Of a DNA stretch of 64,000 bases, positions 20,460 to 38,476 are shown piece after piece. The notes below the pieces were generated by a model. The model was not told the origin of the DNA and searched no databases. It saw only the letters and a list, made by a program, of their open reading frames with translations. The stretch is taken from assembly GCA_044222185.1 (NCBI GenBank), contig JBGANV010000001.1:1376001-1440000 (forward strand). Reading direction: 5' to 3'. Positions within the stretch are counted from its first letter, which is position 1. Every line of letters starts with the position of its first letter. The translations under genes were made by a program, and so were the position numbers. This DNA comes from Planctomycetota bacterium. GTDB taxonomy: Bacteria > Planctomycetota > GCA-002687715 > CAIWVZ01.

Positions 20460-20909
20460 ATGGACATCACGACGCTCTTGAGTGCGGATCGCATCGTCAC
20501 GCTCAAAGACAACACCAAGGACGGCGCAATCAAGACGTTGGTGCGGACCCTCGCCAAATGCCCCGAGGTGACCAAGGAGAAGGAACTCGCCAAGGCGATC
20601 CACGACCGCGAGCGCATCCTCTCCACGGGCATCGGCCAGGGGATCGCGATCCCCCACGCCAAGATCGCGTCGGTCACGAAATTCGTGGCTGCGATCGGCA
20701 TCAGCAAGGTCGGGATTCCGTTCGACAGCCTGGATGACAAGCCAGCCCACCTGATCGTCATGATCGCGGGCCCTGAAGGGCAAAGCGAGGAGTACCTGCG
20801 GATCCTCTCCCGCTTCACGGCCGTCCTGAAGAACGAGCAGACCCGGTCACGCGTGATCGAGGCGAAGAAGTCCGAGCAGGTGATGGCGATCCTCCAGGAA
20901 TCGCGGTGA
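20460..20909 (+). CDS. PTS EIIA component (fructose/Ntr type)
   Basis: RERILSTGIGQGIAIPHAK with the phospho-His, GIPFDSLD. Confidence 0.92.
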   Translation: MDITTLLSADRIVTLKDNTKDGAIKTLVRTLAKCPEVTKEKELAKAIHDRERILSTGIGQGIAIPHAKIASVTKFVAAIGISKVGIPFDSLDDKPAHLIVMIAGPEGQSEEYLRILSRFTAVLKNEQTRSRVIEAKKSEQVMAILQESR

Positions 20910-22585
20910 ACAAGGTCTTCGTTCTCGGTCTCGACGGGGCGACATTCGACCTCCTCGGACCGTGGATCGACTCCGGCGACCTGCCCAACCTGAAGAAACT
21001 CCAGGACGAAGGCGTTCGCGGACCGCTCGAGAGCGTCTATCCCCCGCTGACACCCTGCGCCTGGCCGTCCTTCTACATGGGCAAGAACCCGGGGAAGCAC
21101 GGCCTCTACGGCTACAAGGTGCGCCAGAAGGGCTCCTACGAGGAGATCCCCCTCAGCGCGTCGAGTCGACGCGGGCGATCGGTGTTCGAGCTCATCGGTG
21201 ACCAGGGCGGGAAGGTGGCGGTGCTTTCCGTCCCAATGACTTATCCGGCGACACCCGTCAACGGCGTGCTCTGCACCTGCATCTTCACGCCCAAGCTCGA
21301 CGACATCTATTCGACGGACTGCGCGTGGCCGCCCGAGTTCAAGGAGGACATGAAGAAGGTCATCGGCACCTTCCGCATCCACCCGGAGCGAGTCTACGCC
21401 AAGGGCACCATTCCCGAGCTCATCCAGGACTACAAGGAGACGCTCGAGCAGCGCATCCGGCTGTGCGAGTGGGTCCTCGAGCACAAACCGTGGGACTTCG
21501 CCATCACCGTGCTGAACGAGACCGATCACATCCAACATCAGGTCTGGCACGTGATCGACCCCAAGCATCACGACCACGACCCTGCCGAATTCGCGAAGTA
21601 CGGCAACGTGATCAAGGACTTCTACGTCCACGTGGATCAGCAGATCGGCCGCCTGATGGCGAAGCTGCCGGCGGGTGCCACGTTCGTCGTGATGTCCGAT
21701 CACGGACACGGACCGATCTACCGCTGGATCAACCTCAACAACCTCCTTGCGAAGCACGGGTTCATCCGGTTCAAGCGTGGCCCGGTCACCTGGCTGAAGC
21801 GCGCCATGTTCGCCATGGGCTTCACCCCGGGGAACATCTACCGCCTCAAGCTGAAACTCGATCGCCGAGGCGTGAAGAAGGGCGGCGCAGCCGAGGGCGG
21901 CGGTGGTGCGAGCCCACTCTTCCGCAAGGTGTTCCTCTCCGAGAATGACATCGACTGGCCCCGCACCCGCGCCTACGCGACGGGGCACATGGGTCAGATC
22001 AACGTGAACCTGAAGGGTCGCGAGCCATCAGGCGCGGTTTCCAAGTCGGAGATCCCACAGCTCCGGCGCGAGCTCGAGCAGCTCCTCGACGGGCTCCTCG
22101 ATCCACAGACCGGCGCGAAGATCATCGACCGCATGGTTCCGCGCGAGGAGCTGTTCTTCGGGGAGACCGTATCGCTCGCCTCCGATTTCTTCGTGAAGAC
22201 CATCGACCCGGGATACCAGGCTCTCGGCGGCGCATCGTTCATCTCGAATCGCGTGGTCGAGCGCTCCTACGGCAACACGGCGACTCACCGGATGAATGGG
22301 ATCCTGCTCATGAAGGGCCCCGGGATCCGCAAGGGCGCCCGCGTGGACGGCCTGAAGATCTACGAGCTTGCGGGCAACCTGCTCTATCGCATGGGCCTCC
22401 GCGTGCCCGACGATCTCGACTACCGCTTCGAGCCGGCCCTCTACGACGCCGGACTGCTCGAGTCCGAGCCCCCGCAACTCATGCCCGCGTCCGAGGTGGT
22501 GAAGGAAGATCGGCAGCACGAGCTCTCGCCGGAAGAGATCGCGCGGATGCGAGAGAACCTGAAGAAGCTCGGCTACGTGGATTGA
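20906..22585 (+). CDS. Type I phosphodiesterase/nucleotide pyrophosphatase (alkaline phosphatase superfamily)
   Basis: LGLDGAT, PPLTPCAW (Thr nucleophile), NPGKHG, TDHIQH, MSDHGH, H.MNG, C-terminal LKKLGY; GTG start overlaps the EIIA stop. Confidence 0.88.
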   Translation: MNKVFVLGLDGATFDLLGPWIDSGDLPNLKKLQDEGVRGPLESVYPPLTPCAWPSFYMGKNPGKHGLYGYKVRQKGSYEEIPLSASSRRGRSVFELIGDQGGKVAVLSVPMTYPATPVNGVLCTCIFTPKLDDIYSTDCAWPPEFKEDMKKVIGTFRIHPERVYAKGTIPELIQDYKETLEQRIRLCEWVLEHKPWDFAITVLNETDHIQHQVWHVIDPKHHDHDPAEFAKYGNVIKDFYVHVDQQIGRLMAKLPAGATFVVMSDHGHGPIYRWINLNNLLAKHGFIRFKRGPVTWLKRAMFAMGFTPGNIYRLKLKLDRRGVKKGGAAEGGGGASPLFRKVFLSENDIDWPRTRAYATGHMGQINVNLKGREPSGAVSKSEIPQLRRELEQLLDGLLDPQTGAKIIDRMVPREELFFGETVSLASDFFVKTIDPGYQALGGASFISNRVVERSYGNTATHRMNGILLMKGPGIRKGARVDGLKIYELAGNLLYRMGLRVPDDLDYRFEPALYDAGLLESEPPQLMPASEVVKEDRQHELSPEEIARMRENLKKLGYVD

Positions 22586-22607
22586 TCGACGGCGCGCGCG
22601 GCCCGAG

Positions 22608-23912
22608 TCAGGCCTGGGACGCTGCGCCCGCGGCGGCAGCATCCGTCGATCCCTCGGTTGCAGTCGTGACCGGCAGCCCGACCACCGTTCGCACGCATTG
22701 GATCAGCCGTCCGACGGCGAACGGCTTGTGAAGGAAGGCGGCGACCGGAAATCCGCGAAGGCGAGCCGTGGCCTCGTGCTCCGTGAAGCCGCTCATCACC
22801 ACGACCCGCAGATCGGGCTTGAGCTGCGTCATCGCTCGAAGCGCCGCCGAGCCGTCGATGGCCGGCATCGTGAGGTCGAGCACGACCGCGCCGATCGAAT
22901 CCCGCTTCTCGCGCACGATTTCGATGGCATGGCGGCCGTTCACTGCAACCAGCGTTTCGAACCCGAACCGCTGGAGTGACTCCGCCACGACTTCCCGCAC
23001 GCACTCGTCGTCGTCGACGACGAGGATGGACCTCCCCGCCGGCGGCGGCGCCAGCTCATCGAGGATGTGCAGGGGACCCGTGGGAGTCGGTTCCGTGCGT
23101 TTCGCCACGGGCAGCAGCACGGTGAAACGGCTGCCGAGACCGGGCTCGCTTGCGACCTTCAGCCCGCCGCGGTGCGCGCGCACGAAGCCGAGCACTTTCG
23201 CGAGGCCCATGCCGCGCGCCGCCGATTTCGAGCTGAAGAACGGTTCGAAGATCCGACGCGCGGTGGCCTCGTCCATCCCGCATCCGGTGTCCTCGCATTG
23301 AAGGTAGACGTAGGCACCCTCGGCCAGGTCTCCGATGAACCCGGTCTGCTCGAGGTAGCGGTGATCTGCCTGCACGACGCCCGTTCGAAGGCAGACTCGC
23401 CCGCTTCCCGCCGTGACGGCCTCGATCGCGTTGACGAGAAGGTTCGAAACGACCTGCTCCAACTGGACCGAGTCGCCCGAGATCAGCGGGAGGTCCGTCG
23501 CGAACTCGCGGTACACCTCGATCCCGGAGGGAATCGCGGGCTCGAGCGCGTCGACGACGGCGCCCGTCAGCTTGTTCATCGAGATGGGGTCGACGCTGCT
23601 GATGCCGCGGCCGCTGAGCACGAGCAGCCGCCCCGTGAGTTCGGCCGCCTGCCGTGCCGCCTGTTCGATGCGCTGGAGCGGGAGCAGGAGCCTGGTCGGG
23701 ATCCCATCGTCGATGGCGGAGAGATTCGAGTGTCCGAGGATCGTCGTGAGGAAGTTGTTCAGATCGTGGGCGATGTCGCCGACGTCCGCCATGGCTTCGA
23801 GGTCCAAGGCTCGATTTCGGGGCAAACTCTGCATCGAGGTTCCGCCGTCCTCCGCGCAACTCCGCCAAAGGGCGCTGGCCGTCGAACGGTCCCGGCCCGT
23901 CTCGCCGCTCAC
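22608..23912 (-). CDS. Hybrid histidine kinase/response regulator (CckA-like) without a recognisable sensor domain
   Basis: IAHDLNNFL, NLLVNA, DTGCGM, IFEPFFSSK, GMGL; receiver motifs VVDDD, VLDLTMP, KPF. Start may be further downstream. Confidence 0.88.
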   Translation of the reverse strand: MSGETGRDRSTASALWRSCAEDGGTSMQSLPRNRALDLEAMADVGDIAHDLNNFLTTILGHSNLSAIDDGIPTRLLLPLQRIEQAARQAAELTGRLLVLSGRGISSVDPISMNKLTGAVVDALEPAIPSGIEVYREFATDLPLISGDSVQLEQVVSNLLVNAIEAVTAGSGRVCLRTGVVQADHRYLEQTGFIGDLAEGAYVYLQCEDTGCGMDEATARRIFEPFFSSKSAARGMGLAKVLGFVRAHRGGLKVASEPGLGSRFTVLLPVAKRTEPTPTGPLHILDELAPPPAGRSILVVDDDECVREVVAESLQRFGFETLVAVNGRHAIEIVREKRDSIGAVVLDLTMPAIDGSAALRAMTQLKPDLRVVVMSGFTEHEATARLRGFPVAAFLHKPFAVGRLIQCVRTVVGLPVTTATEGSTDAAAAGAASQA

Positions 23913-24004: not shown

Positions 24005-25966
24005 TCAGTCCGCCCAACCCGCTGCGCCGCTGCGGCTTCGAGGGATCCTCACGCCAAAGATCCAAAGGATCGCGAGGCCACCCCCCAGGAACCATGACAG
24101 TCGCTGGGCAGCGCGAAGGGAGCAGAAATAACCCCAAATCGATCGGGGCGGGCGGAACCATCCCGGTGAGTCGGCACGACTTGGAGCCGGATCGAACAAG
24201 AGCGGGCGCAGTTCGATCCCCCCCGGGCGCGAGTCGGGCGTGCCGCCGGCCTTCTGGATCGACCCGATGACCCTGAGCCCCCCAGTCCGCCGAAGGTCGG
24301 CCTCGGTGATCCCCGCGAGAAAGGTGACGCAGGGGCTGCCGGCCGGGATGCCGTGGTCGTCGGAAAACGACACACGCCATACGCCGGCGGCGCGGCAGGC
24401 GCGATCGAGATCCACCAGGCGCCGGGCGTCGTCGCCGGACTGCGGTTGACGCTGGCGGTTGCCAACCTCGAACCCGTCGACGCCGGCAGCCAGGTAGGCC
24501 TCGACCGACGGGGTCGCGACCTGGCCGGCCGTGAGCCAGTGGTGCGCGACGATGACGAACGCGCCCATCCGCTTGGCGGCCCGCACAGCCGCCAGCGGCT
24601 CCGCTTCGAGGATGGTTGCGGCGACGGCGTCGCGCGTCCCGAGGACGAGGAGGTGAGGTGTGTCCCAGGTGCCCGCGTGGCGAGTGGTCATCGGGCCGCG
24701 GCCGCTCCACTCGCAGCCAGACACGCCAGCGGAAAGCCCGCCGTCGTCCGGCGCGAGGTGTGAGTGATGCGTCGTGACCGCCCAGGTCACCCCTCGCTGG
24801 AGTTGGCGGGATTCGAGTGCCGGTGCATCGATGTGCCCGTCGCTTGGATCGCCTCCATGCAGGTGCCAATCGACGAAGACACCCGTGAGGACTCTCGACG
24901 CGAACGCATCGGGAGGGGCGATCCCGCGCCAGAACGTGACCGCCCACAGGCTTCCCGCGACGACGATGGCGAGGGCCGCTCGGATGGCCGTTCCACGCTT
25001 GCTGCGGAACGCCGAAAGGACGAGCAGAAGGACGAGCCCGCATCCCCAACACAACGCCCAACGGAAGAAGCTTGCGAGGTCCGCCTCGGTGGCGCTCCAC
25101 AGCACCGGTCCCGAGATGGGCTCCGTGATGACGCGCAGGAGTTGGGGACGTGTGTCGAATCCCGGGACGATCTCGCCTGAAACCGGATCACGTCCCACCG
25201 GGAGCGCGATCCAAACCCGCGTGAGGATCAGCCACGCGCCGAGAAAGAACAGAGGGCGGCAGAATGGACGTCCCCTGTCGGGATCCAGTGCCCGGAGGAA
25301 TCCGGCCCACACGGGCCAGCGCGTGATCCAGGCGGTCAGCGTCGTTCCGAGGAGCCCCGTGGCCACGCCGGCGAGCACGTCCGACGGCCAGTGGGCTGCG
25401 AGGACGACTCGCTGAATGCACTGCAGCAGCGGGAACGCCCACAGGAGATTCCGCACTCGGCCGCGGCCGGCAGCCAACCAGAGTGCCGAGGCGATGGCGG
25501 TGGCGCTGCTCACGTGCCCTGAGGGAAACGACTCGAGGTCCGCGAGTCCGAGCGGCGACCAAAGGAACGATGCGTCGCCGACGTCGAGCATGGGTCGGGC
25601 ACGTCCGACGGTGGACTTCAATCCATGGGTGATCACGAGGACGACCCAGAACCCGATCACGATCACCAGCCCTGAGCGCTGCGCCGACGCCGCGCGCCGA
25701 CCCAACGCCATCAACATCACGCCGGCGAGAACGGCGACGGTCATGGACCAGCGCGGTGCAGGGTCGTCGAGCCACTCGAAGAACGGCCGCAGCGGCGACG
25801 CCTGCGGAAGGTTGAAACGTGTGACGACCCATCGGTCGGCGAACGACACCAGGGCGGCGAGGATCCCGAACAGGATCGTCCCGCCGATCAGGGTGCGGCG
25901 ATCCAGGGCGGCATCACGATCGTCGGCGACGCGCGAATCCGAGAATCCACCCCTCACGTTCCGCAC
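24005..25966 (-). CDS. Membrane PAP2 phosphatase fused to a PHP-family domain
   Basis: PAP2 motifs KSTVGRARP, SFPSGH, RVVLAAHWPSDV; PHP motifs DWHLH..SDG, HLL, AH, DGFEV.N, SDDH. Confidence 0.8.
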   Translation of the reverse strand: MRNVRGGFSDSRVADDRDAALDRRTLIGGTILFGILAALVSFADRWVVTRFNLPQASPLRPFFEWLDDPAPRWSMTVAVLAGVMLMALGRRAASAQRSGLVIVIGFWVVLVITHGLKSTVGRARPMLDVGDASFLWSPLGLADLESFPSGHVSSATAIASALWLAAGRGRVRNLLWAFPLLQCIQRVVLAAHWPSDVLAGVATGLLGTTLTAWITRWPVWAGFLRALDPDRGRPFCRPLFFLGAWLILTRVWIALPVGRDPVSGEIVPGFDTRPQLLRVITEPISGPVLWSATEADLASFFRWALCWGCGLVLLLVLSAFRSKRGTAIRAALAIVVAGSLWAVTFWRGIAPPDAFASRVLTGVFVDWHLHGGDPSDGHIDAPALESRQLQRGVTWAVTTHHSHLAPDDGGLSAGVSGCEWSGRGPMTTRHAGTWDTPHLLVLGTRDAVAATILEAEPLAAVRAAKRMGAFVIVAHHWLTAGQVATPSVEAYLAAGVDGFEVGNRQRQPQSGDDARRLVDLDRACRAAGVWRVSFSDDHGIPAGSPCVTFLAGITEADLRRTGGLRVIGSIQKAGGTPDSRPGGIELRPLLFDPAPSRADSPGWFRPPRSIWGYFCSLRAAQRLSWFLGGGLAILWIFGVRIPRSRSGAAGWAD

Positions 25967-26212
25967 TCCGCGGTGCTGAGGTCCGCAAGGCGAGCGGGGT
26001 TTCGGAGGTCCACCCCGCCGGGTCCGGGTCGCCGGCGATGTGTCGCTGTCGCACGCATGTTTGGCATCGGATCACGCGATCGGGACGGCCCGCCGCGCGA
26101 CGTGGGCACCGTGGTAACTTGGTATGTTGCGTTCAAAAGCCGAACGGAATCTTGACCTCGAGACTGGCACCCGTCTCCCGGCAACCGCACCCCGCGACCG
26201 CCGCGCCAAGGA

Positions 26213-27970
26213 TTGAATCACATGACGCCCAAAAGCACCGGACCAGCGGGCCGGACGCGTTTCATTTGCACCATCGGTCCCCCCACCCTGAACGTGGAGA
26301 GTCTGCGTGGGCTCGCCGACCACGGGATGAACATCGCGCGCGTGAACGGGTCTCACGGCTCGCTCGACGACGTTCGGTCCATGGTGACGTACCTCCGCGC
26401 GAATCTTCCCTCCGGGGTCGAGATCCTGCTGGACCTGCCTGGGAACAAGATCCGGACGGACAACATCGCCGAACCCATCGACCTGCGCGCCGGGGACACG
26501 TTCGTCATTCCGCCGAACCGTGTGACCTATCGTCCGCTCTACACCCGGGTGCACGCCGGTGACCGGATTTCCGCGGCGGACGGTGCGATCCAGCTGGACG
26601 TCGTCGAGGTGAAGGGTGAGGACATCGTCACCCGCGTCCTGGTTGGAGGGTTGCTGCGCAACCGCAAGGGCCTGAACATCCGCGGCATACACGATGCCAT
26701 CCCGTTCGACTTCGAACGGGACATCTCTCTCATCAACATCGCGATCGAATTGCAGGTCGACTATCTGGGCCTGTCCTTCGTGCGCGCCCCCGAGCACGTG
26801 CGCCGCATCAAGTCGCAGCTCGTCGGGACGCGAATCCGCGTCGTCGCGAAGGTCGAGACGGCGGAGGCCGTCGACCTGCTCCCGAGGATCCTCGCGGAGG
26901 CCGACATCATCATGATCGACCGCGGCGACCTCGAGGCCGAGATCGGGCGCGAGAACATCCCGCTCACGCAAAAGCGGGTCATCACGAAGGCTCGCGAAGC
27001 TCACGTGCCGGTGATCGTCGCGTCGCAGTTCATGATGTCGATGCTCGACAAGCCGATCCCCTACATGGCCGAGGTGTCGGACGTCGCCAACGCGGTGCTC
27101 GATCGCGCCGACATCCTCATGCTGTCGGAGGAGACGGCGATCGGGAAGTACCCGAATGACGCCATCGGCACCATGCGCCAGATCGCCCGCACCGTCGAGA
27201 AGCAGCTCGACCATCAGTACGGGGCCATCATCCTCGCCGCCGGCCCATCCACGGGTTTTGGCTCACTGACGACCAACAAGCACAAGTGCATGCTCGACGT
27301 CGGCGGGACGACGATCATCAGCCATCAGCTCGAGAACCTGCGCGCCTGCGGCATCCGGGATGAACACGTGACCGTCGTCACCGGACACAACCATGCGCAG
27401 ATCGAGCACTATCTGCGGGGCGAGGCGTTCTCCGGATCGTTCGTCTACAACCCGTGGTACGCGACGACGAACATGCTCGTGTCGCTCTGGCTCGCCCGGC
27501 CCGACTCCAACATCGTCGTCGTGTACGGCGACATCATCTTCGATCCGACGATCCTCACGGACATCCTTGCGACGCCCGGCGACGCCGTCGCGGCGATCGA
27601 CGGCGACTCGGACATGACGCCCGAGGACGAGAAGGTGATCGTGAAGGACGGCCGCGTCGTCTCCTTGAGCAAGGAGTTGGATCCGGCGCACTGCCACGGT
27701 GAATTCCTCGGCCTCGCGCGCTTCTCGCGTCGCGCGGCTCGCAAGCTCCAGACCGAGCTCGATGCCATCGTCAAGCAGGGTCACATGATGGCCTTCCTCA
27801 CGCTCGGCCTCGAACGGCTGAACGAGAAAGGCACCCCGCTGATCCCCTGCTGGACCGAAGGCCGCCCGTGGGCAGACAACGACGGGCTGGCGGACCTCGA
27901 ACACTCGCGTGAGAAGGTCTACCCGAAGATCCTCGCCCGCCGCAAAACCATGGAGCCCGCCAAGCGATGA
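26213..27970 (+). CDS. Pyruvate-kinase-like (A+B domains) fused to a LicC/PntC-type nucleotidyltransferase
   Basis: PK motifs CTIGP, RVNGSHG, DLPGNKIR, LSFVR, AKVE, RGDL, EVSDVANA, MLSEETAIGKYP. From about 27218: AIILAAG..KCML, YNPWYATTN, YGDIIF. Start may be ATG 26222. Confidence 0.88.
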   Translation: MNHMTPKSTGPAGRTRFICTIGPPTLNVESLRGLADHGMNIARVNGSHGSLDDVRSMVTYLRANLPSGVEILLDLPGNKIRTDNIAEPIDLRAGDTFVIPPNRVTYRPLYTRVHAGDRISAADGAIQLDVVEVKGEDIVTRVLVGGLLRNRKGLNIRGIHDAIPFDFERDISLINIAIELQVDYLGLSFVRAPEHVRRIKSQLVGTRIRVVAKVETAEAVDLLPRILAEADIIMIDRGDLEAEIGRENIPLTQKRVITKAREAHVPVIVASQFMMSMLDKPIPYMAEVSDVANAVLDRADILMLSEETAIGKYPNDAIGTMRQIARTVEKQLDHQYGAIILAAGPSTGFGSLTTNKHKCMLDVGGTTIISHQLENLRACGIRDEHVTVVTGHNHAQIEHYLRGEAFSGSFVYNPWYATTNMLVSLWLARPDSNIVVVYGDIIFDPTILTDILATPGDAVAAIDGDSDMTPEDEKVIVKDGRVVSLSKELDPAHCHGEFLGLARFSRRAARKLQTELDAIVKQGHMMAFLTLGLERLNEKGTPLIPCWTEGRPWADNDGLADLEHSREKVYPKILARRKTMEPAKR

Positions 27971-29139
27971 GCATCGTCCCTTCGACGGATGCCGATCTCG
28001 TCAATCGAATCCTCACGGGTGCGGCGCGCGAGAAGGCCATCGAGCGCTCGCACCGACTCCCCCGCCTCGATCTCGACCGCAACCAGGTGCTCGACCTGGA
28101 GAAGATCGCGAACGGCACGTTCTCACCGCTCGTCGGCTTCATGAACCAGGCCGACACGCGGGCGGTGGTCGACGACGGCCGCATGGCGAACGGCAACCCG
28201 TGGACGATTCCCGTGAACCTTCAGGTCACCGAGGAGCGCGCCCGCTCCCTGCGCGCCGCCACCGAGGTGCTCTTGTGGAACGCCGAGGAGAACCGCCCTG
28301 CCGGCCTGATGGAGATTTCCGAGATCTTCCCCCTCGACCTCGAGCGGGACGCCGCAAGGGTCTACGGGACTACCGAGCGGGCCCATCCCGGCGTGAACCG
28401 GTTCCTCGACGGAGGCGGGTTCGCGCTCGCGGGGCCCGTCTGGCTCATCGACCATTCCGTGTCGCTGATCCCGGCCCGCTTCGACCTCGATCCGCGCGTC
28501 GTCCGTGCCGAGTTCCGCAAACGGGGTTGGAAGACGGTGACCGGGTTCCAGACCCGCAACCTCGGACACCGCGCGCACGAACGGCTTCAGAAGATCGCCC
28601 TCGAGATGACGGACGGGCTGCTCATCCATCCGCTGATCGGGTGGAAGAAGAAGGGCGACATGCTGCCCGAGGTGATCCTCGAGGGGTACGAGGTGCTCGT
28701 CCGCAACTACTACCCCGAACGGCACGTCGTGCTCGCGGCGCTCACCACCGCCATGCGCTATGCCGGCCCTCGCGAGGCCGTGTTCCACGCCCTGATCCGG
28801 CGCAACTTCGGCTGCACACACTTCATCATCGGTCGCGACCACGCTGGCGTCGGCGGGTACTACGAGAAATACGCAGCTCACCGCATGTTCGACCGCTACA
28901 CGCCGCAAGAGCTGGGAATCACGCCGCTGCGGCTCCACGGTCCGTGCTGGTGCAACAAGTGCCAGGAAATCGTCACCGAGAAGACGTGTCCCCACGGCGA
29001 CGGCAGCTGGGTGGACATCTCCGGGACGGAAGTGCGCGCGATGATCGGCCGCGGCGAGCGGCCGCCCGAGTTCTTCATGCGCCCCGAGATCGCGGAATTC
29101 CTCGTCCGCCGGGCCCGCGAAGGTGCCGTGTTCTTCTGA
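27967..29139 (+). CDS. sat: Sulfate adenylyltransferase (ATP sulfurylase, Sat type)
   Basis: FSPLVGFM, HPGV, FQTRNLGHRAHE, MRYAGPREAVFHA, GCTHFIIGRDHAGVG, Zn site CNKC..CPH, ISGTEVR, FMRPE. Confidence 0.92.
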   Translation: MSIVPSTDADLVNRILTGAAREKAIERSHRLPRLDLDRNQVLDLEKIANGTFSPLVGFMNQADTRAVVDDGRMANGNPWTIPVNLQVTEERARSLRAATEVLLWNAEENRPAGLMEISEIFPLDLERDAARVYGTTERAHPGVNRFLDGGGFALAGPVWLIDHSVSLIPARFDLDPRVVRAEFRKRGWKTVTGFQTRNLGHRAHERLQKIALEMTDGLLIHPLIGWKKKGDMLPEVILEGYEVLVRNYYPERHVVLAALTTAMRYAGPREAVFHALIRRNFGCTHFIIGRDHAGVGGYYEKYAAHRMFDRYTPQELGITPLRLHGPCWCNKCQEIVTEKTCPHGDGSWVDISGTEVRAMIGRGERPPEFFMRPEIAEFLVRRAREGAVFF

Positions 29140-29177
29140 GCCGATAGACGAAACAAACCCGTACTGCGGAGTCAGCC

Positions 29178-30344
29178 ATGGTGTTCGGACTGTTCAAGAA
29201 GAAAGACGGGAACGATCGCGCCAAGGCCGCACGGCCGAACGTGATCTTCGTCCTCATCGACATGGTGCGCGCCGACCGTCGCAAGGGTCGCAAGATCTTC
29301 GACGAGCTGGGGCGGCGAAGCATCTGTTTCCCCAAGATGTTCACCCACGCTCCGTACACGATCGCGTCCGTGCACGCGTTCATGTCGGGGATGTACGGCA
29401 GCCTCACGGGCGTCGACGCGTACTACAAGGCGCCGAAGTTCGACAAGGACGGCTGCAAGACGCTCGCGCAGCACTTCAAGGAGAACGGCTACTACTGCCT
29501 GGCCGACTTCATGAACCCGGGCATCGCGCCGCACCAGGGTTTCGACGAGGTCCGCGTGCACGACGAGTTCAAGGACGACCTGCTCGCGCGTCACAAAGCC
29601 ATGATCACGGAAGTGCGTGGAAAGAAGCCCCACTTCCTCTACCTGCACTTCTCCTACGTGCACCGCGAGATCGTCACGAACGTCATCAAGAAGTTCAAAG
29701 ACGACGACCCGAACTACTTCGGCGAGGACAACAGGACGAAGAACGACGAACGCTACAACTCGTACCTCGACATGGCCGAGGAGTACATGACGGGCCTGCT
29801 CGCCCACATGGATTCGCTCAAGGTCGACGAGGACACGATCGTCCTGTTCATGACGGACCATGGTTGCGGCATCGGTGAACGGACCGGCGAGAAGGCCTAC
29901 GGCATCTTCACCTACGACTACACGATCAACGTGTGGGCGTACCTGATGCACAAGGGGCGGCTGCCCGGCGGGAAGGAGATCCCGCAGATGGTCCGGACCA
30001 TCGACATCGCGCCGACGCTCCTCGACCTCTGCAACATCGACCCTGTCGAAGGCGAGAAGGAAATGCAGGGCCGGAGTCTCGTCCCCGTCATCGAGGGCGC
30101 GGATCGCGACGATCGCGAGATCTACGTGGAGACCGCAGGCCTCGACGGTCCCACGCCATCGCCCTACGAGGCCAACATCTTCTGCGTGCGGAACCGCCAG
30201 TGGAAGATGATCTACAACTCCACGACCAAGACGCGCGAGCTGTACGACCTCGTCGCCGACCCGCAGGAGTCGAAGAACATCGCGGGCACGAAACCGGAGG
30301 TCGAGACTCCCCTCTTCGAGAAGATCCGCCGCCGCTACCTGTGA
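29178..30344 (+). CDS. Cytoplasmic sulfatase-fold (alkaline phosphatase superfamily) hydrolase/transferase with a Thr nucleophile
   Basis: PNVIFVLIDMVRAD, APYTIASV in place of C/SxPxR, YLH..YVH, TDHG, DIAPTLL, ELYDLVADPQE; no signal peptide. Confidence 0.85.
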   Translation: MVFGLFKKKDGNDRAKAARPNVIFVLIDMVRADRRKGRKIFDELGRRSICFPKMFTHAPYTIASVHAFMSGMYGSLTGVDAYYKAPKFDKDGCKTLAQHFKENGYYCLADFMNPGIAPHQGFDEVRVHDEFKDDLLARHKAMITEVRGKKPHFLYLHFSYVHREIVTNVIKKFKDDDPNYFGEDNRTKNDERYNSYLDMAEEYMTGLLAHMDSLKVDEDTIVLFMTDHGCGIGERTGEKAYGIFTYDYTINVWAYLMHKGRLPGGKEIPQMVRTIDIAPTLLDLCNIDPVEGEKEMQGRSLVPVIEGADRDDREIYVETAGLDGPTPSPYEANIFCVRNRQWKMIYNSTTKTRELYDLVADPQESKNIAGTKPEVETPLFEKIRRRYL

Positions 30345-32716: not shown

Positions 32717-34000
32717 TCAGGCATCCGGCCGGCGGCGCGCCCTGAGTTGGAACGGACCATCGCGGAGCGCGTCCATGGCACCGCTCACACCGCGCAACCC
32801 ATGGTGCGAGAAGAGAACGGCTCCGGACGCTCCGAGGATGCGGGTGGACTCCACACGGTGGACGATTTCCGCAGAGGTGAGCTTCCACGCTCCAATACCG
32901 GCCCAGATCTGCCCGCGCCCTTTCGCCGCAACCGCGGCCCGCAGCTGGCGATCGAAGACGTCAGGACGCTCCGAGTAGATCATCGGACACGCGGCGTCGA
33001 GCGCGCCGTCCCGGAGCCACGCGGGCCAGTCCTGAAGCCGGTGGTCACGGGCATCGCCGATGTCCGGAAACACGGCGGCGCTCACGACGATCGACGGGCG
33101 GATTCGACGTGCAGCCTCGCCGACGTCACGAACGAGGTGTGTGACTCCGTCCCGCCGGAACTGCGCGAACCGCGCGGGATAGCGCCTGGCGTACGCGAGC
33201 GGGTCGGCCTTCGAACGGATCCCCATCTCGCCCCGTTCGGATTCCGACAGTCCAGCGTCGACCTCGCGTCGAAAGAGCTCGAGCACCTTCCGCCCGTAGC
33301 CGAACTCGGTGCTCGGATAACGGATGTAATCCAGGTGGATGCCGTCGATCCGATACTTGTTGCAGATGTCCTCGACGACTCGCACCACGTGGGCGCGGTA
33401 GTCGGGGATCGAGGGGTCACAGAAGAGCCCTTCGACTTCGTTCTTGTGCTCTTTCGCGTACCGCGTGATCGCATCCGTGTACGTCGGATCGTGCGGCATG
33501 CGATTCCAGAGCTGCTGCGCGAGCGCCTGCGGGACCGAGAGCCACTCGGGGTGCGCCACGACCACGTGGTTCAAATCCGTGGGCACGTCGAACGCGTTGG
33601 CGACGAGTCCGCAGTTGACCCAGGCATGGACCTCCGTGCCGCTCCTCACGGATTCGATGGCCCGACCGAGCGGGTCGAACCCACTCGCCTTCAGCCTCGC
33701 CGGCCGCGGCTCGATCGAGGAGTTGTAGTAGGCATCGCCCCGCGAGCGCACCTGTAGGAACAGCGCGTTGCCGCGGAACCCCTGCAGCTCGTCGACGGCT
33801 TTCGACACGTCCGCGTCGTCGGCGGCCGAACTGGCCACGACCCACGTCGCGCGGAGCTCCGGCGCCCCGAGCGGACCCTCGGACACCACCGCAGGTCGAC
33901 TCGTCGTCGACGATCCCCTCGGTGAGCTGCACCCCGCTGCAAGGATCGCGAACGCCGCGAGCCCCGCGACGGTCAACCGCGCGTTGACGATGGTCGGCAT
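32717..34000 (-). CDS. GHL10/DUF187 (YddW/DigH-like) glycoside hydrolase lipoprotein
   Basis: Lipobox LAAGC, ELRATWV, QVRSRGDAYY, FDPL, EVHAW, IDGIHLDYIRY, QDWPAWL, PMIY. Confidence 0.88.
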   Translation of the reverse strand: MPTIVNARLTVAGLAAFAILAAGCSSPRGSSTTSRPAVVSEGPLGAPELRATWVVASSAADDADVSKAVDELQGFRGNALFLQVRSRGDAYYNSSIEPRPARLKASGFDPLGRAIESVRSGTEVHAWVNCGLVANAFDVPTDLNHVVVAHPEWLSVPQALAQQLWNRMPHDPTYTDAITRYAKEHKNEVEGLFCDPSIPDYRAHVVRVVEDICNKYRIDGIHLDYIRYPSTEFGYGRKVLELFRREVDAGLSESERGEMGIRSKADPLAYARRYPARFAQFRRDGVTHLVRDVGEAARRIRPSIVVSAAVFPDIGDARDHRLQDWPAWLRDGALDAACPMIYSERPDVFDRQLRAAVAAKGRGQIWAGIGAWKLTSAEIVHRVESTRILGASGAVLFSHHGLRGVSGAMDALRDGPFQLRARRRPDA

Positions 34001-34007
34001 GTGTGGA

Positions 34008-35093
34008 TCACTTCGAGTAGAAGATGAGGAGATCGCGCTTGATGTCGGGCGGCCACACGTAGGTTTCCTCGAGCAGCTTGGCGAGCACTCGCTTCTTCGC
34101 CTGCCCGATGTGTTCCTGGCGGAGCACCTCACGGATCTGCGATTGCGCCTCTTCGAAAGGCATGACCCGCGCCGCAACCCGCTCCTTGACGAGCACGAGG
34201 GCGAACCCGCGCGGGTTCGTCTTGTTCGGGAACGGGAGCGGAGCCGACAGTTCGTTCACCGGCGCGGAGAGCGCGTAGTCGACGATCACTTTCTGATAGG
34301 ACGACGCCGCGTCGACCCAGCCGTGGTCGCCGCCTTCGTCGGCCTTGATGCCGCGGCTGTACCGCTTCGCGAGCACGCCGAAGTCGGCACCCGTGCGGAG
34401 GGCCTCGCGGATCTCCTCGCACTTCTCGAGCGTCGCCTCCTCGGGCGTCTGGTTGCCCACGGGCATGAACGCAGTCTTGGGGAGGTAGATCACGAACGTC
34501 TTCGCCTGGTCCTTCTGCGTGAATTTCTCCTTCAGGTTCTGCTGGTAGAAGCGCCGGATCTCCCGGGCAGTCGGCTCGACCCAGAAGTCCGGGCGGAACT
34601 GCGGCGCCCGCGTGCCGAACGCGCCGGCCTGTGCTGCGGTCACCGTATTCCGCGTGATGTCGCGGCCGAGCGTCTCTTCGTACTCGGTCTCGCTGGCGAA
34701 GCCCTGCTCCCGGAGGAACTCGCGGAATTCGCCCTCGCCGCCTGCGCGCTCCTTCGCCGCTTCGAGCTGCTGGAGGATGAACTTCTTGGGGATCACGGCT
34801 CCCGTACGCACGACCGCAAGTTCCTCGACCTTCTCGCGTACGAGTTCCAGGAGCTTCGGCCGGAAGGCCCGGCGCCGAAGCTCCGGATCCGCCTTCCAGT
34901 AGTTGGGCCCCAGGGCCTTCTCGACCTCGCTCTTGGTGACGACGACGTTGTTGATCTTCGCGGCGGCCGCATCGACGGCGCCCTCTTCGGGCTCGGCGGG
35001 CGGCGGTGTCGACGGTCGTGTCGTCTGCCCCACCGCCAGCCCGGCTATCGACAGGGCGACGGCGAGCGCGAGGCCTCGGATCGGTCGTTGCAT
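34008..35093 (-). CDS. SurA-like PpiC-type peptidyl-prolyl isomerase
   Basis: Signal peptide, AAKINNVVVTKSEV, FGVLAKRYS....EGGDHGW; directly downstream of mfd. Confidence 0.82.
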   Translation of the reverse strand: MQRPIRGLALAVALSIAGLAVGQTTRPSTPPPAEPEEGAVDAAAAKINNVVVTKSEVEKALGPNYWKADPELRRRAFRPKLLELVREKVEELAVVRTGAVIPKKFILQQLEAAKERAGGEGEFREFLREQGFASETEYEETLGRDITRNTVTAAQAGAFGTRAPQFRPDFWVEPTAREIRRFYQQNLKEKFTQKDQAKTFVIYLPKTAFMPVGNQTPEEATLEKCEEIREALRTGADFGVLAKRYSRGIKADEGGDHGWVDAASSYQKVIVDYALSAPVNELSAPLPFPNKTNPRGFALVLVKERVAARVMPFEEAQSQIREVLRQEHIGQAKKRVLAKLLEETYVWPPDIKRDLLIFYSK

Positions 35094-35108
35094 GGATTTC
35101 CCCCGGTC

Positions 35109-38100
35109 TTAAGTCCGCGGATTATAGGTCGCTGGCGCCGCGACTCCATCCGATGCGAGCGGCGTGAGGGACGACTGGAGAAAGTCCAGGAGTTCGCGCG
35201 GTCCAGAGAACGGCTGGGGATGCACCAGGAGCAACGTGTTCCCTCCAACGACGCGAGCCAGCCTGGGGTCCAGCTTCACGCGGCGGCAGAGCGCACCCAG
35301 GTTCTTCGCCCGCAGCATGGGTCCCTCCCCCTTCAGCAGTTCGAGTCGCGAGATCCGCTCGCGTTCCATGAACGCGCGAATCCTCGCCACGTGGACGAAC
35401 TCCTCGACGACGGCGGGCGCGGGGCCGAACCGGTCGCGAAGCTCGGCGATGACCGTGCGGAAGTCGTCCTCGACGCGGCAGCGGCCGAGCTTGCGGTAGA
35501 TCTCGATCCGCAACCGACGGTCGGTGACGTAGTCCTCCGGCACGTATGCGTCGAAGTCCAGGAACAGCTCGATCTCTTCCGGCGAGACGATTCGCTCGTT
35601 CTTCAGACGCTTGACGGCCATGTCGAGGAGACGGCAGTAGAGGTCGTACCCGACCGACGCGATGTGTCCGCTCTGCTCGGGACCGAGGAGGTTCCCCGCC
35701 CCCCGGATCTCCAGGTCGCGGAGCGCGAGTTGGAACCCGGCGCCGAGGTGGTTGAACTCCTCGATCGCGTGGAGGCGCTTCTGCGCGACTTCGGTCGGTA
35801 CAACGTCCGCCCGCACGAGGAAGTAGGCGAACGCCTGGACCTCCGATCGCCCGACCCGACCGCGCAACTGGTGGAGGTCCGAAAGCCCGTACATCTCGGC
35901 GCGGTCCACGAAGATGGTGTTTGCGCGCGGAATGTGAAGGCCGGATTCGACGATCGTCGTCGAGACGAGGACGGTCGCTCGCCCATGAACGAAATCGTTC
36001 ATCACCCGTTCGAGTTCACGCTCGCCCATCTGGCCGTGACCCACGACGAAGCTGGCTTCGGGTACCAGCTGCTGGAGCTGGTGAACGAGCCTGTGGATCG
36101 TCTGGACGCGGTTGTGGATGAAGAACACCTGACCATGGCGCTCCACCTCGCGCATGATGCCGGCGCGCACCAGCGCCGGGCTCCACTCGGATACCTCCGA
36201 ATGAACGGGACGTCGCCCTGCGGGTGCCTGCCTAAGCGTGGCGATGTCGCGGATGCCGACCATCGATTGGTGCAGCGTCCTGGGGATCGGCGTGGCGCTG
36301 AGCGAGAGGACGTCCAGGTTGCGACGGAGCTTGCGCAACTTCTCCTTGTGGACGACGCCGAAGCGCTGCTCTTCGTCGACGATGAGGAGCCCGAGTTCCC
36401 TGAACACGACGTCGTCCTGCAAGAGACGATGGGTGCCGATCAGCACGTCGACGTGCCCGGCCGTCACGCCTTCGAGGACCTGTTTCACCTGGCGTTCGGT
36501 GCGAAACCGCGACAACGACTCCACCGTCACCGGGAAGTCGGCCATTCGCTCCCGAAACGTCTCCGCGTGTTGATGCGCGAGGATCGTCGTCGGTACGAGC
36601 ACGGCCACCTGGCGCCCACCCATCACGCACTTGAACGCCGCGCGCATGGCGAGTTCCGTCTTGCCGTAGCCCACGTCTCCGCAAAGCAGACGATCCATGG
36701 GTCGCGGCGACTCGAGATCGCGCTTGATGGCCTCGATGGACGTGAGCTGATCAGGGGTCTCCTGGTGCGGGAATGCCGCCTCGAACGCCTGCTGCCACTG
36801 CGTGTCGGCGGGATGCGCGATGCCCTGGGCGCGTGCCCGAACCGCGCTGAGCTCCAGGAGGTCCGCCGCCAGGTCCGTCACCGCGTCCGCGACCTGCGCC
36901 TTCTTCTTCTGGAAGGACCCGCTGCCAACCTTCGACAGCTCGGGCGCCTCGCCGCGGCCACCCACGTACTTCTGGACGAGGTCGATCTTGGCCGTAGGCA
37001 CGTGGACGTGGACGTCGTCGCGGAACTCCAGCACGAGGAAGTCCTGGTGGGCACCTCCGCGCTCCGTTCGCTCGAGCTTCATGAATCGCGCGATGCCGTG
37101 GACGAGATGGACGACGAAATCGCCCTCCGCCAGATCCAGGAACGTATCCAGCGGGCGCGTCTCGAGCGGGGGTTCCACCTCCTCGGGCGAAGCCTCCACG
37201 GCGCGCGTGACGGCGAACAACTCGTGGTGCGACACCGCCGCGATCCCGAGGAGCGGTGACGAAAACCCCTCGCTCAACGGGCCGTCGAGCGGGATCACGG
37301 TGCGTCGCAAGACGTCGCTCGCCCCGGCCGGCGCGTCCGTCGCCCGTAACGCGGCAAAGAAGCGCTCGCGTTCCGTCGCGCCGTCGAAGCAGAAGAGCGT
37401 GGCGGTCTTGCCGCGAGTCACGCGCTCGAGAGTCCGGACGGCCGCCTCGAACGAATGCCCTTCGGCGGTGACGACCTGAGACCCCAGGTTGATGGCGCTC
37501 TCCGCGGGTCCCCGCACCCTCGTGACGACGATCTCCCGGAACCGGCGCAGCGCCTCCATGCGCGCACGTGCCGCCGGACGCGCATCCTCGAGGAACGTCT
37601 CCTGATGCGCCGCGGACATCTGCTCGATCCGCCTCGGGTCGCGCAGGACGACGACCGTGTCGTCGGACAGATACTCGGCGAGCGCGCCGTCGCCCGTGGG
37701 GCCGTCGGGACCCTCGAGCCAGACGCTCGCGACCGTGAGGGTCTCGACGAAAATCTGGCTCACGGGGTCGAACCGGCGCAGCCCCTCGACGACGTCATCG
37801 AAGACCTCGACGCGCAGCGGAAGGCGCGCCCGCCGATCGAAGACGTCCACGAGGTCACCGCGGACGGCGAACTGACCGGCCGCGGAGACGACTGCCGTGC
37901 GTTCGAACCCGGCGGATCCGAGCGCCGCCGTGAACTCGTCCATCGCACACCGACCGCCGACTCGCAGCGAGCGTTCGGCGGACGAGAGATCGGCGCGCCG
38001 CGGCAGCGGGTCCATGGCGCTTTCGACGGACGCGGCGAGCATGCGAGATCCCCCTGCGCACCACTCGGCGATACCCCGGGCCCGCTCCACACCGCTGGCT

Positions 38101-38387
38101 CGCCGGCCCACGAGCCTCACGGGCGCAGGCGCCGCCAGGATCTCGAGGTCTCGGACCAGGCCGAGAACCTCGGCCTCCTCGGGAAGCAGCACCAGGATCG
38201 GCGGCAGCGTCTCGGCGGACCTCGCCGCAGCCGTCAGCAGGATCGAGAGCAGCGCCCCGTGACACCCGCCCACGTGCCCCGGCTCGCTCTCGTCCCCCCT
38301 GAGCGCACCAACCACTCGGCGAAAAACCTTGGTTCTCCGCACGAGTTCCAGCACGTCGATCGACGTAGTGATGGAGTCTGCCGCCAT
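35109..38387 (-). CDS. mfd: Transcription-repair coupling factor
   Basis: RID-like VVHLVHGIARF, CGDVGYGKTE, DEEQRFG, SATPIPRT, QLRGRVGRS, RDLEIRGAGNLLG, C-terminal TRCF domain. Confidence 0.97.
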   Translation of the reverse strand: MAADSITTSIDVLELVRRTKVFRRVVGALRGDESEPGHVGGCHGALLSILLTAAARSAETLPPILVLLPEEAEVLGLVRDLEILAAPAPVRLVGRRASGVERARGIAEWCAGGSRMLAASVESAMDPLPRRADLSSAERSLRVGGRCAMDEFTAALGSAGFERTAVVSAAGQFAVRGDLVDVFDRRARLPLRVEVFDDVVEGLRRFDPVSQIFVETLTVASVWLEGPDGPTGDGALAEYLSDDTVVVLRDPRRIEQMSAAHQETFLEDARPAARARMEALRRFREIVVTRVRGPAESAINLGSQVVTAEGHSFEAAVRTLERVTRGKTATLFCFDGATERERFFAALRATDAPAGASDVLRRTVIPLDGPLSEGFSSPLLGIAAVSHHELFAVTRAVEASPEEVEPPLETRPLDTFLDLAEGDFVVHLVHGIARFMKLERTERGGAHQDFLVLEFRDDVHVHVPTAKIDLVQKYVGGRGEAPELSKVGSGSFQKKKAQVADAVTDLAADLLELSAVRARAQGIAHPADTQWQQAFEAAFPHQETPDQLTSIEAIKRDLESPRPMDRLLCGDVGYGKTELAMRAAFKCVMGGRQVAVLVPTTILAHQHAETFRERMADFPVTVESLSRFRTERQVKQVLEGVTAGHVDVLIGTHRLLQDDVVFRELGLLIVDEEQRFGVVHKEKLRKLRRNLDVLSLSATPIPRTLHQSMVGIRDIATLRQAPAGRRPVHSEVSEWSPALVRAGIMREVERHGQVFFIHNRVQTIHRLVHQLQQLVPEASFVVGHGQMGERELERVMNDFVHGRATVLVSTTIVESGLHIPRANTIFVDRAEMYGLSDLHQLRGRVGRSEVQAFAYFLVRADVVPTEVAQKRLHAIEEFNHLGAGFQLALRDLEIRGAGNLLGPEQSGHIASVGYDLYCRLLDMAVKRLKNERIVSPEEIELFLDFDAYVPEDYVTDRRLRIEIYRKLGRCRVEDDFRTVIAELRDRFGPAPAVVEEFVHVARIRAFMERERISRLELLKGEGPMLRAKNLGALCRRVKLDPRLARVVGGNTLLLVHPQPFSGPRELLDFLQSSLTPLASDGVAAPATYNPRT

Positions 38388-38476
38388 GGGATGCCGCTCC
38401 GCGCGCGGCGCGGCCCCTACAATGCGTGGCGCCTCATGCCCGCTCAACCGACGTTCCAGGTGCACGCCGACGAACC

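Follow-up and report, generated by a model that had tools for sequence, protein, structure and literature searches.

A pyruvate kinase-nucleotidyltransferase fusion coupled to ATP sulfurylase: a candidate activation-and-transfer cassette conserved in an order of Planctomycetota

The window analysed here is a 64,000-nt stretch from a Planctomycetota bacterium (contig JBGANV010000001.1, positions 1,376,001 to 1,440,000; genome G000, completeness 93.8%), and gene coordinates are given as window positions. It carries a cassette of three genes transcribed in one direction. Gene 1 (open reading frame (ORF) 26213-27970, + strand) encodes a pyruvate kinase (PK) fused to a nucleotidyltransferase (NT), gene 2 (27967-29139, +) an ATP sulfurylase (Sat) with a PUA-like and a catalytic domain, and gene 3 (P0003; 29178-30344, +) a cytosolic protein of the sulfatase fold and the alkaline phosphatase superfamily. 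An earlier note on this DNA had described the genes as tightly coupled, and the ORF coordinates confirm this: the PK-NT stop and the Sat start overlap by four nucleotides (ATGA), and Sat and gene 3 are 38 nt apart. The start of gene 1 has been moved to the ATG at 26222, which is likelier, being preceded by AAGGA; the database copy of the fusion is 582 amino acids (aa) long. None of the three proteins possesses a hydrophobic N-terminus or a transmembrane-like segment, and no gene for adenosine 5′-phosphosulfate (APS) kinase, 3′-phosphoadenosine 5′-phosphosulfate (PAPS) reductase or a sulfotransferase lies beside the cassette; the earlier note had likewise reported no signal peptides and no such genes nearby.

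Conservation was followed in the window's order, represented by 23 species genomes in four families (f1-f4) and 13 genera, and in a phylum sample of 401 Planctomycetota genomes. The gene order was compared in 21 genome loci and the PK-NT/Sat junction in 25 loci having both genes, some of the metagenome loci among the latter probably being duplicates of loci from metagenome-assembled genomes (MAGs). The fusion is found in all 23 genomes of the order. By coordinates Sat lies beside it in 20, and in the remaining three the fusion ends no more than about 900 nt from the end of a contig; in the locus comparison Sat is directly downstream in 20 of 21 cases. The ATGA overlap is present at 18 of the 25 junctions, the other seven having an ATG or GTG start 1-19 nt past the PK-NT stop. 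The co-conservation of all three genes that had been anticipated thus stands for PK-NT and Sat (23/23, adjacent in at least 20) and fails for gene 3, which has an orthologue in only five genomes. Elsewhere among the 401 genomes the NT matches show 25-41% identity, and those inspected are standalone NTs or parts of other fusions. Databases hold approximately 100 clusters of the fusion, named "pyruvate kinase" or "choline kinase", and all of the named ones derive from MAGs of Planctomycetota or Omnitrophota. A full-text literature search, in which few subscription journals are covered, returned no paper describing either a PK joined to a nucleotidyltransferase or this combination of genes.

Residues 14-318 of gene 1 match PF00224 with 246.5 bits (cut-off 30) and TIGR01064 with 313.3 bits (cut-off 306.4), and pyruvate kinases in the PDB align with residues 14-330 at E values down to 1.5e-60. 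The A and B domains span approximately 26252 to 27166 (+), the B (lid) domain being present. The C-terminal allosteric domain (PF02887) has no match in gene 1, and the NT domain stands in its place, in agreement with the earlier description of a PK without its C-domain. The columns R43, N45, D74, K213, E215, R237, D239, S305, E307 and T308 are invariant relative to the canonical PK of the same genome; we take these to include the functional Arg, Lys, Glu, Asp and Thr/Ser positions and the MLSxETA motif. The threonine position of A-T-Q is Ser in the window's fusion and Thr in Omnitrophota. Judged by these residues, the domain is probably a working PK with no mark of anything else; the suggestion that it acts as a hydroxy-acid kinase found no backing, the active-site columns being those of ordinary PKs. 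The canonical enzyme for which a search had been advised is encoded at C1:1567784-1568743 (385.8 bits), which rules out the fusion as the sole PK of this genome. A further PK-like gene at C7:110383-111714 (L003, L004) lies in a 639-aa frame; its PF00224 match is split between positions 3-82 and 109-315, which suggests a PK with a large insertion. A phosphoenolpyruvate (PEP) mutase and a phosphonate pathway were also considered and set aside, there being no PEP-mutase match and a strong PK profile.

A short form of the fusion, approximately 480 aa in length, consists of a PK barrel without the B (lid) domain joined to the NT. In a metagenome scan with an Omnitrophota-weighted alignment most hits were ordinary PKs, and only L029-L033 of 80 loci matched beyond the PK part, four of them (L029-L032) being of the Planctomycetota type and L033 a short form. 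In L033 the fusion (83-1522, 479 aa) is followed by a GT9 protein, a DegT aminotransferase and a second GT9 protein, the GT9 family being that of the heptosyltransferases. Farther on in the same locus are a histidine kinase and an extracytoplasmic function (ECF) sigma factor with an RseB-like protein. Some short forms carry a precomputed match to HpcH/HpaI aldolase.

The NT domain (approximately 27224-27940, +) is recognized at residues 338-464 by the MobA-like family NTP_transf_3 (PF12804) with 46.5 bits. The best solved relatives of its profile are 6PD1, a nucleotidyl transferase/aminotransferase (9.6e-30), and LicC (1JYK; 1.2e-27), followed by the IPCT structures 2XME, 4JD0 and 4MND; by these profile matches the domain is a member of the LicC/PntC/IPCT class, as had been surmised. 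D440 (in YGD), D555 and D557 (in W-x-D-N-D) do not vary among 35 fusion sequences from two phyla, and K358, conserved in at least 90%, is nearly invariant. The P-loop reads LAAGPSTGFGSL, with Gly replacing the arginine of G-x-G-x-R. In related NT enzymes this arginine holds the pyrophosphate (PPi) leaving group. The Gly corresponds to R16 of Thermotoga IMPCT, one of three critical active-site residues listed in the CpgD paper (PMC12275187). From that paper and an alignment, K358 and D440 appear to correspond to K26 and D112 of IMPCT, the catalytic Lys and the Mg-binding Asp. The standalone relatives of the NT in other Planctomycetota have varied neighbours, including an ABC transporter, a UDP-glucose dehydrogenase, an aminotransferase fusion and a TagF-like gene, and no partner gene is shared among them.

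Gene 2 has complete PUA_2 and ATP-sulfurylase domains and scores 476.4 bits with NF003166 (cut-off 387) and 353.8 bits with TIGR00339 (cut-off 322.95); QTRN/HRAH and GRDHAG can be read in the sequence and are presumably the characteristic motifs of the enzyme. It is the sole PF01747 gene of the genome. The search for cysC that the earlier note had called for revealed a cysD-cysNC pair on contig C5 (NF004035, 849.9 bits; cut-off 715), with the genome's only PF01507 match directly upstream. Over the order, APS kinase (PF01583) is present in 12 genomes and was not found in 11, including seven that are at least 90% complete (G048, G177, G099, G194, G302, G141, G011). Sulfite reductase (NIR_SIR, PF01077) occurs in one genome of the 23, G372, which has 6% contamination, and AprA (TIGR02061) is above the cut-off in none. 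There are ten strong PF01507 matches, and seven of them share a contig with an APS-kinase match at a distance of up to approximately 2.5 kb, as is the arrangement of cysD; no clear CysH was seen in the order, these matches having been read by position and not with a dedicated CysH or CysD model.

On these searches the order looks unable to assimilate sulfate and reliant on reduced sulfur. The idea that Sat simply feeds cysteine synthesis is therefore rejected, the reductive branch not having been found order-wide: the cassette's Sat has no part in cysteine synthesis, and in many genomes none in the formation of PAPS either. Of the three conditions that the earlier note had named as counting against its reading, none holds. 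Since Sat is kept in all 23 genomes, is coupled to PK-NT and lacks an ordinary consumer for its product, it is most likely that APS, or the Sat reaction itself, serves the cassette. A complex prediction for PK-NT and Sat scored 0.00 and carries no weight either way. Sat is common throughout the phylum (188 of 401 genomes) and so is not specific to the fusion.

Outside the order, Sat pairs with alkaline-phosphatase-superfamily genes in other Planctomycetota families too, there within a recurrent cluster of another composition. Locus L125 runs from Sat through a weak sulfatase-fold protein of 321 aa and APS kinase to two large PF01663 NPP-type proteins (765 and 693 aa). In L121 and L128 Sat occurs with tandem NPP-like matches at the spacing of L125, Sat lying at approximately 6.7-8.3 kb in all three, and in L124 APS kinase and Sat are accompanied by an NPP-type gene and a sulfatase gene of divergent orientation. 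In two low-GC Planctomycetota genomes (L118, L119) the genes after Sat encode a small 4Fe-4S protein and a FAD_binding_2 flavoprotein of 558 aa, a pair that looks like an AprBA-type APS reductase.

Gene 3 matches the Sulfatase family (PF00884) with 64.7 bits, and SGSH_C. Aligned with choline sulfatase it has Thr61 at the position of the formylglycine cysteine and T-I-A-S-V instead of C-x-P-x-R. The residues P59-Y60-T61 are invariant in 22 of 22 aligned family members, which agrees with the earlier proposal of a sulfatase-like fold with a threonine nucleophile; we take the threonine at this position to be as in LtaS, EptA and NPP. Of the putative metal ligands, D227 and H228 do not vary and D28 is almost always kept. 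An alignment-based AlphaFold model (predicted local distance difference test (pLDDT) 89.6) finds its closest folds, by Foldseek, in the S1 sulfatases (TM-score 0.69-0.78, E values down to 7.6e-24). As far as we can assign residues in an alignment by eye, several that are typical of sulfatases appear to be replaced, namely the second Asp, the Lys/His pair and the CxPxR arginine. The proteins form a distinct family of approximately 375-390 aa with an invariant A-P-Y-T, found in Planctomycetota (70-82% identity to gene 3), next in Omnitrophota (47-55%), and in a few others.

In several loci of the f3 type a protein of approximately 1320 aa is encoded convergently to Sat (L024:10882-14841, -, 1319 aa; L022:9319-13281, -), and the L024 protein combines an N-terminal transmembrane bundle with a sulfatase-fold domain in which Thr again occupies the place of the nucleophile. 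The 650-aa C-terminal part of this protein is without a family assignment, and GT4 and GT2 glycosyltransferases adjoin the gene.

The position after Sat is filled in two ways. Of the 21 loci, three have a close gene 3 homologue after Sat; a 270-aa CDP-alcohol phosphotransferase (PF01066) follows Sat directly in five loci. The nearest NCBIfam models of the latter are archaetidylinositol-phosphate synthase and IPCT/DIPPS, with scores far below the cut-offs (46.6 vs 580 and 39.6 vs 580). Orthologues of gene 3 are present in G000, G048, G332 and G160 (f1) and in G177 (f4), adjacent to the cassette in four of these five genomes and at a contig break in the fifth. Orthologues of the phosphotransferase are present in 17 genomes (G257 of f1, nine of nine in f3 and seven of eight in f2) and are adjacent to Sat in six of them. 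No genome has both, and only G359 (completeness 76%) has neither. The window's genome has two other CDP-alcohol phosphotransferases elsewhere, and the orthologue was not found in it. As f1 includes genomes of each kind, this distribution calls for no fewer than two swaps. There is good support here, short of proof, for the view that the two proteins do the same job, and the final transfer step that the earlier note had put forward gains by this mutual exclusion.

Fusion and sulfatase-fold gene also occur together outside the phylum. In two Omnitrophota MAGs their accessions are three apart (MDD4939902.1 and MDD4939905.1; MDD5552857.1 and MDD5552860.1), from which we surmise that Omnitrophota too pair the fusion with a Thr sulfatase-fold protein, as read from accession numbers, with two genes in between. 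The best 120 homologues of Sat include none from the Omnitrophota contigs of 21268, 40198 or 17270 nt. A Sat cluster (P0316) and a short-form fusion (P0103) are both on contigs of 29343 nt, which is a hint only.

A fourth gene, overlooked in the earlier note, would belong to the set. It is transcribed divergently from the cassette (24005-25966, -) and encodes a 653-aa PAP2+PHP-like membrane phosphatase (Pfam PAP2, 65 bits), in which the PAP2 domain (residues 103-216) is followed by extra transmembrane segments and a soluble part starting DWHLH. The sequences KxxxxxxRP, PSGH and R..H..D are present and are presumably the motifs of the PAP2 family; the soluble part is placed near the PHP and PHP_C clusters by a protein atlas, which is a lead only to its being PHP-like. 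A homologue exists in 21 of the 23 genomes, on the same contig and within approximately 3 kb of the fusion in 20, and is divergently upstream in 17 of the 21 loci. No sigma-70-like site was recognized in the intergenic region between the two genes (25967-26221), the sigma-70 pattern being little informative for this phylum, and a promoter and terminator scan of the locus gave nothing useful.

Farther upstream lie genes for a hybrid histidine kinase, an NPP-type phosphodiesterase (PF01663; 20906-22585, +) that is a possible accessory, a PtsN-like EIIA protein, thioredoxin reductase and proline dehydrogenase; downstream, a gene for an M43 peptidase and one for a GHL10 protein are convergent. The NPP-type gene and the hybrid histidine kinase/response regulator sit at 20906-23912, between the ptsN-like and PAP2 genes. 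Both occur at this position in the window only, and the NPP gene alone in L016, so that the block looks like a local insertion. At 33768-38576 there are overlapping ORFs on opposite strands, each exceeding 1150 aa (33768-37259, +; 35109-38576, -).

We propose, with a probability of roughly 40%, that the cassette encodes a pathway resembling the Kennedy and CpgD-CpgA routes, in which a phospho-group is activated with a nucleotide and then transferred, and of which sulfate activation is an integral part. The NT, given its membership of the LicC/PntC/IPCT/CpgD class and its conserved Lys and Asp residues, would join a nucleotide to a small phosphorylated compound (X-P) to give NDP-X. A transferase would then hand phospho-X from NDP-X to an acceptor alcohol: in most relatives this would be the membrane CDP-alcohol phosphotransferase, and in the window's genome the cytosolic sulfatase-fold enzyme, working through a covalent phospho-threonine intermediate at Thr61. 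The strict either/or distribution and the known Thr-nucleophile members of the alkaline phosphatase superfamily both point to such a step. The fused PK, on account of its residues, might most simply supply nucleoside triphosphate (NTP) from PEP beside the NT site. The PAP2/PHP protein may trim phosphate from the product or its carrier at the membrane. An anionic head group or an envelope decoration is the probable product, and the occurrence of one short-form fusion beside two GT9 heptosyltransferases and a DegT aminotransferase is supporting context.

The sulfate activation performed by Sat would be a part of the proposed pathway, because the gene is obligatory and translationally coupled and APS has no canonical consumer in much of the order; it might serve to sulfate X or the acceptor, or APS might be the nucleotidyl donor for the Arg-less NT. 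The last of these, with sulfate as the leaving group, seems on balance unlikely. If it applied, the outcome may be either a high-energy ADP-linked donor, such as ADP-enolpyruvate or ADP-glycerate, passed on by the cytosolic Thr sulfatase-fold transferase, or, with phosphate as the acceptor, a PEP-driven cycle generating pyrophosphate in which sulfate is merely a catalyst.

The closest described parallel is in Caulobacter crescentus, where, according to two reports, CpgD forms CDP-glycerate from CTP and phosphoglycerate for the PgsA-family protein CpgA, in the route to ceramide diphosphoglycerate (PMC12275187, PMC9393093). A donor of the CDP-hydroxy-acid kind that the earlier note had imagined is accordingly now in print (PMC12275187). 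The combination of an IPCT-like NT with an enzyme of the CDP-alcohol phosphotransferase family (PgsA domain) is shared with most relatives of the window (17 of 23), and in the window's genome the sulfatase-fold gene holds that place. In contrast to the fusion, CpgD is standalone and keeps its P-loop Arg (R16), CpgA is the proposed transferase, and neither a PK fusion nor a Sat or a sulfatase-fold transferase belongs to that system. Around the cassette, sphingolipid genes were not seen. A putative CDP-inositol lipid cluster of Bacteroides and Prevotella, made up of an NT, a phosphotransferase and a phosphatase (PMC9246714), is similar in its NT class and phosphatase partner, and an inositol-1-phosphate synthase is encoded in the window's genome. 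Unlike IPCT/DIPPS of di-myo-inositol phosphate synthesis, however, the cassette NT is fused to a PK and not to a phosphotransferase, Sat is added, and the inositol-1-phosphate synthase is unlinked to the cassette.

LicC and PntC, the cytidylyltransferases that activate phosphocholine and 2-aminoethylphosphonate for attachment to glycans, include the best solved relatives of the NT (1JYK, 6PD1), and the short-form fusion in a locus resembling those of the lipopolysaccharide core is a further likeness; the cassette differs from their systems in that no choline kinase, LicD or PEP mutase partner was seen and in the loss of the P-loop Arg. Gene 3 resembles the S1 sulfatases, such as choline sulfatase, in fold and putative metal ligands, but without CxPxR it would have no formylglycine, and it lacks the transmembrane domain of LtaS and EptA. 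Complete as its PUA and catalytic domains are, like those of the canonical sulfate activation enzyme, Sat is here coupled to PK-NT and not to CysC. In the synthesis of coenzyme F420 an NT-fold enzyme (CofC/FbiD) activates 2-phospholactate or PEP and a second enzyme (CofD/FbiA) transfers the phospho-acid to an alcohol; the fit with a PEP-binding domain joined to an NT is conceptual only, the Pfam families being different and without a match here.

Several observations weigh against the proposed pathway. The Gly is found in 79 of 84 recognizable P-loops of the family and Arg in two, while standalone relatives carry Arg, and the NT domain may accordingly lack the usual use of NTP or be regulatory. 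The assignment of Thr61 as the putative nucleophile comes from alignment alone, and the fold of gene 3 is nearer to true sulfatases than to LtaS and EptA. The cassette contains no enzyme for making X-P and no sulfotransferase. No more than two or three replacement events might suffice to produce the either/or pattern, kin genomes of one order being non-independent samples, and in f3 the CDP-alcohol phosphotransferase is unlinked, its neighbours being housekeeping genes (DPP-IV peptidase, RNB nuclease, transketolase). The genes for thioredoxin reductase (trxB), proline dehydrogenase and the PtsN-like protein are also syntenic in approximately 15 loci, and since all of this concerns one order, part of the linkage would be inherited gene order. 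Finally, in a MAG labelled Proteobacteria (L025) a fusion 60% identical to that of the window lies between a SIS-domain protein upstream and a Na+/H+ exchanger downstream, and neither Sat nor the PAP2 gene accompanies it; this could reflect mis-binning or gene transfer.

Such points raise the question of whether there is a dedicated pathway at all. The fusion might be a PK isozyme in which a degenerate, nucleotide-binding NT-like domain has replaced the allosteric C-domain in a regulatory role, with Sat as a general sulfate activator and the neighbours held together by descent. This would suit the intact PK catalytic columns, near those of ordinary PKs of the "IDRGDL" type, the lost P-loop Arg, the presence of Sat in other contexts across the phylum (in 188 genomes) and the synteny of unrelated housekeeping genes. 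We nevertheless consider it unlikely, as the metal-binding and Lys residues of the NT are invariant across two phyla, Sat is universal and translationally coupled in the order although no downstream enzyme was found for it in many of the genomes, the fusion and the Thr sulfatase-fold gene co-occur in Omnitrophota, and a canonical PK is already encoded in the genome of the window.

A cycle centred on APS would give the missing arginine a meaning. In it the Arg-less NT would use APS as an adenylyl donor, sulfate leaving: acting as an APS:phosphate adenylyltransferase it would yield ADP, the PK with PEP would convert this to ATP, and Sat would regenerate APS and PPi from ATP and sulfate. The net reaction would be PEP + Pi to pyruvate + PPi, sulfate and adenylate being catalytic; in a variant X-P is the acceptor and ADP-X the product. 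The loss of the Arg is family-wide, and the scheme would account at once for the PK fusion, the translational coupling of Sat and the missing consumer of APS. The genome also encodes an H+-pyrophosphatase (C7:791953-794046, 606 bits) and has no match to the family-I soluble enzyme (PF00719), family II not having been searched. The chemistry is, however, without precedent in the NT fold, the NT keeps its entire LicC/IPCT-typical substrate-binding half, and in its phosphate variant the scheme offers no reason for the PAP2 gene or for the either/or transferases, which together make the cycle quite unlikely.

Direct sulfuryl transfer from APS to an acceptor, which the earlier note had also entertained, would be performed by the Thr sulfatase-fold enzyme, and in relatives by the CDP-alcohol phosphotransferase-like protein, while PK-NT makes or recycles the acceptor or the nucleotide; the S1 sulfatase fold of gene 3, the 11 genomes with Sat in which no APS kinase was found, and the proximity of Sat to sulfatase-fold and NPP-type genes in other Planctomycetota favour it, but it is very unlikely given that the catalytic residues of sulfatases appear replaced, that sulfo-threonine as an intermediate would, on general chemical grounds, amount to a stable alkyl sulfate, that the role of PK-NT is left unexplained, and that the CDP-alcohol phosphotransferase family is, to our knowledge, known solely for the formation of phosphodiesters.

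The individual parts of the cassette belong to known families; what appears to be new is the fusion, an obligatory Sat where sulfate-reduction genes were not found, and a soluble Thr sulfatase-fold protein as a stand-in transferase. The cassette occurs throughout one Planctomycetota order (23/23) and its fusion recurs in Omnitrophota, yet databases call this key protein only "pyruvate kinase". Automated annotation would credit these bacteria with sulfate assimilation and an extra glycolytic PK, both of which are probably wrong. If the proposed pathway is correct, there would be a second, structurally different version of a Kennedy-type transfer step, in which a soluble Thr enzyme of the sulfatase fold does the work of a CDP-alcohol phosphotransferase, and ATP sulfurylase would have a role in organisms in which no means of sulfate reduction was found, approximately half of them without an APS kinase found. 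It would also point to a new anionic lipid, solute or decoration of the envelope in two phyla that have received little study.

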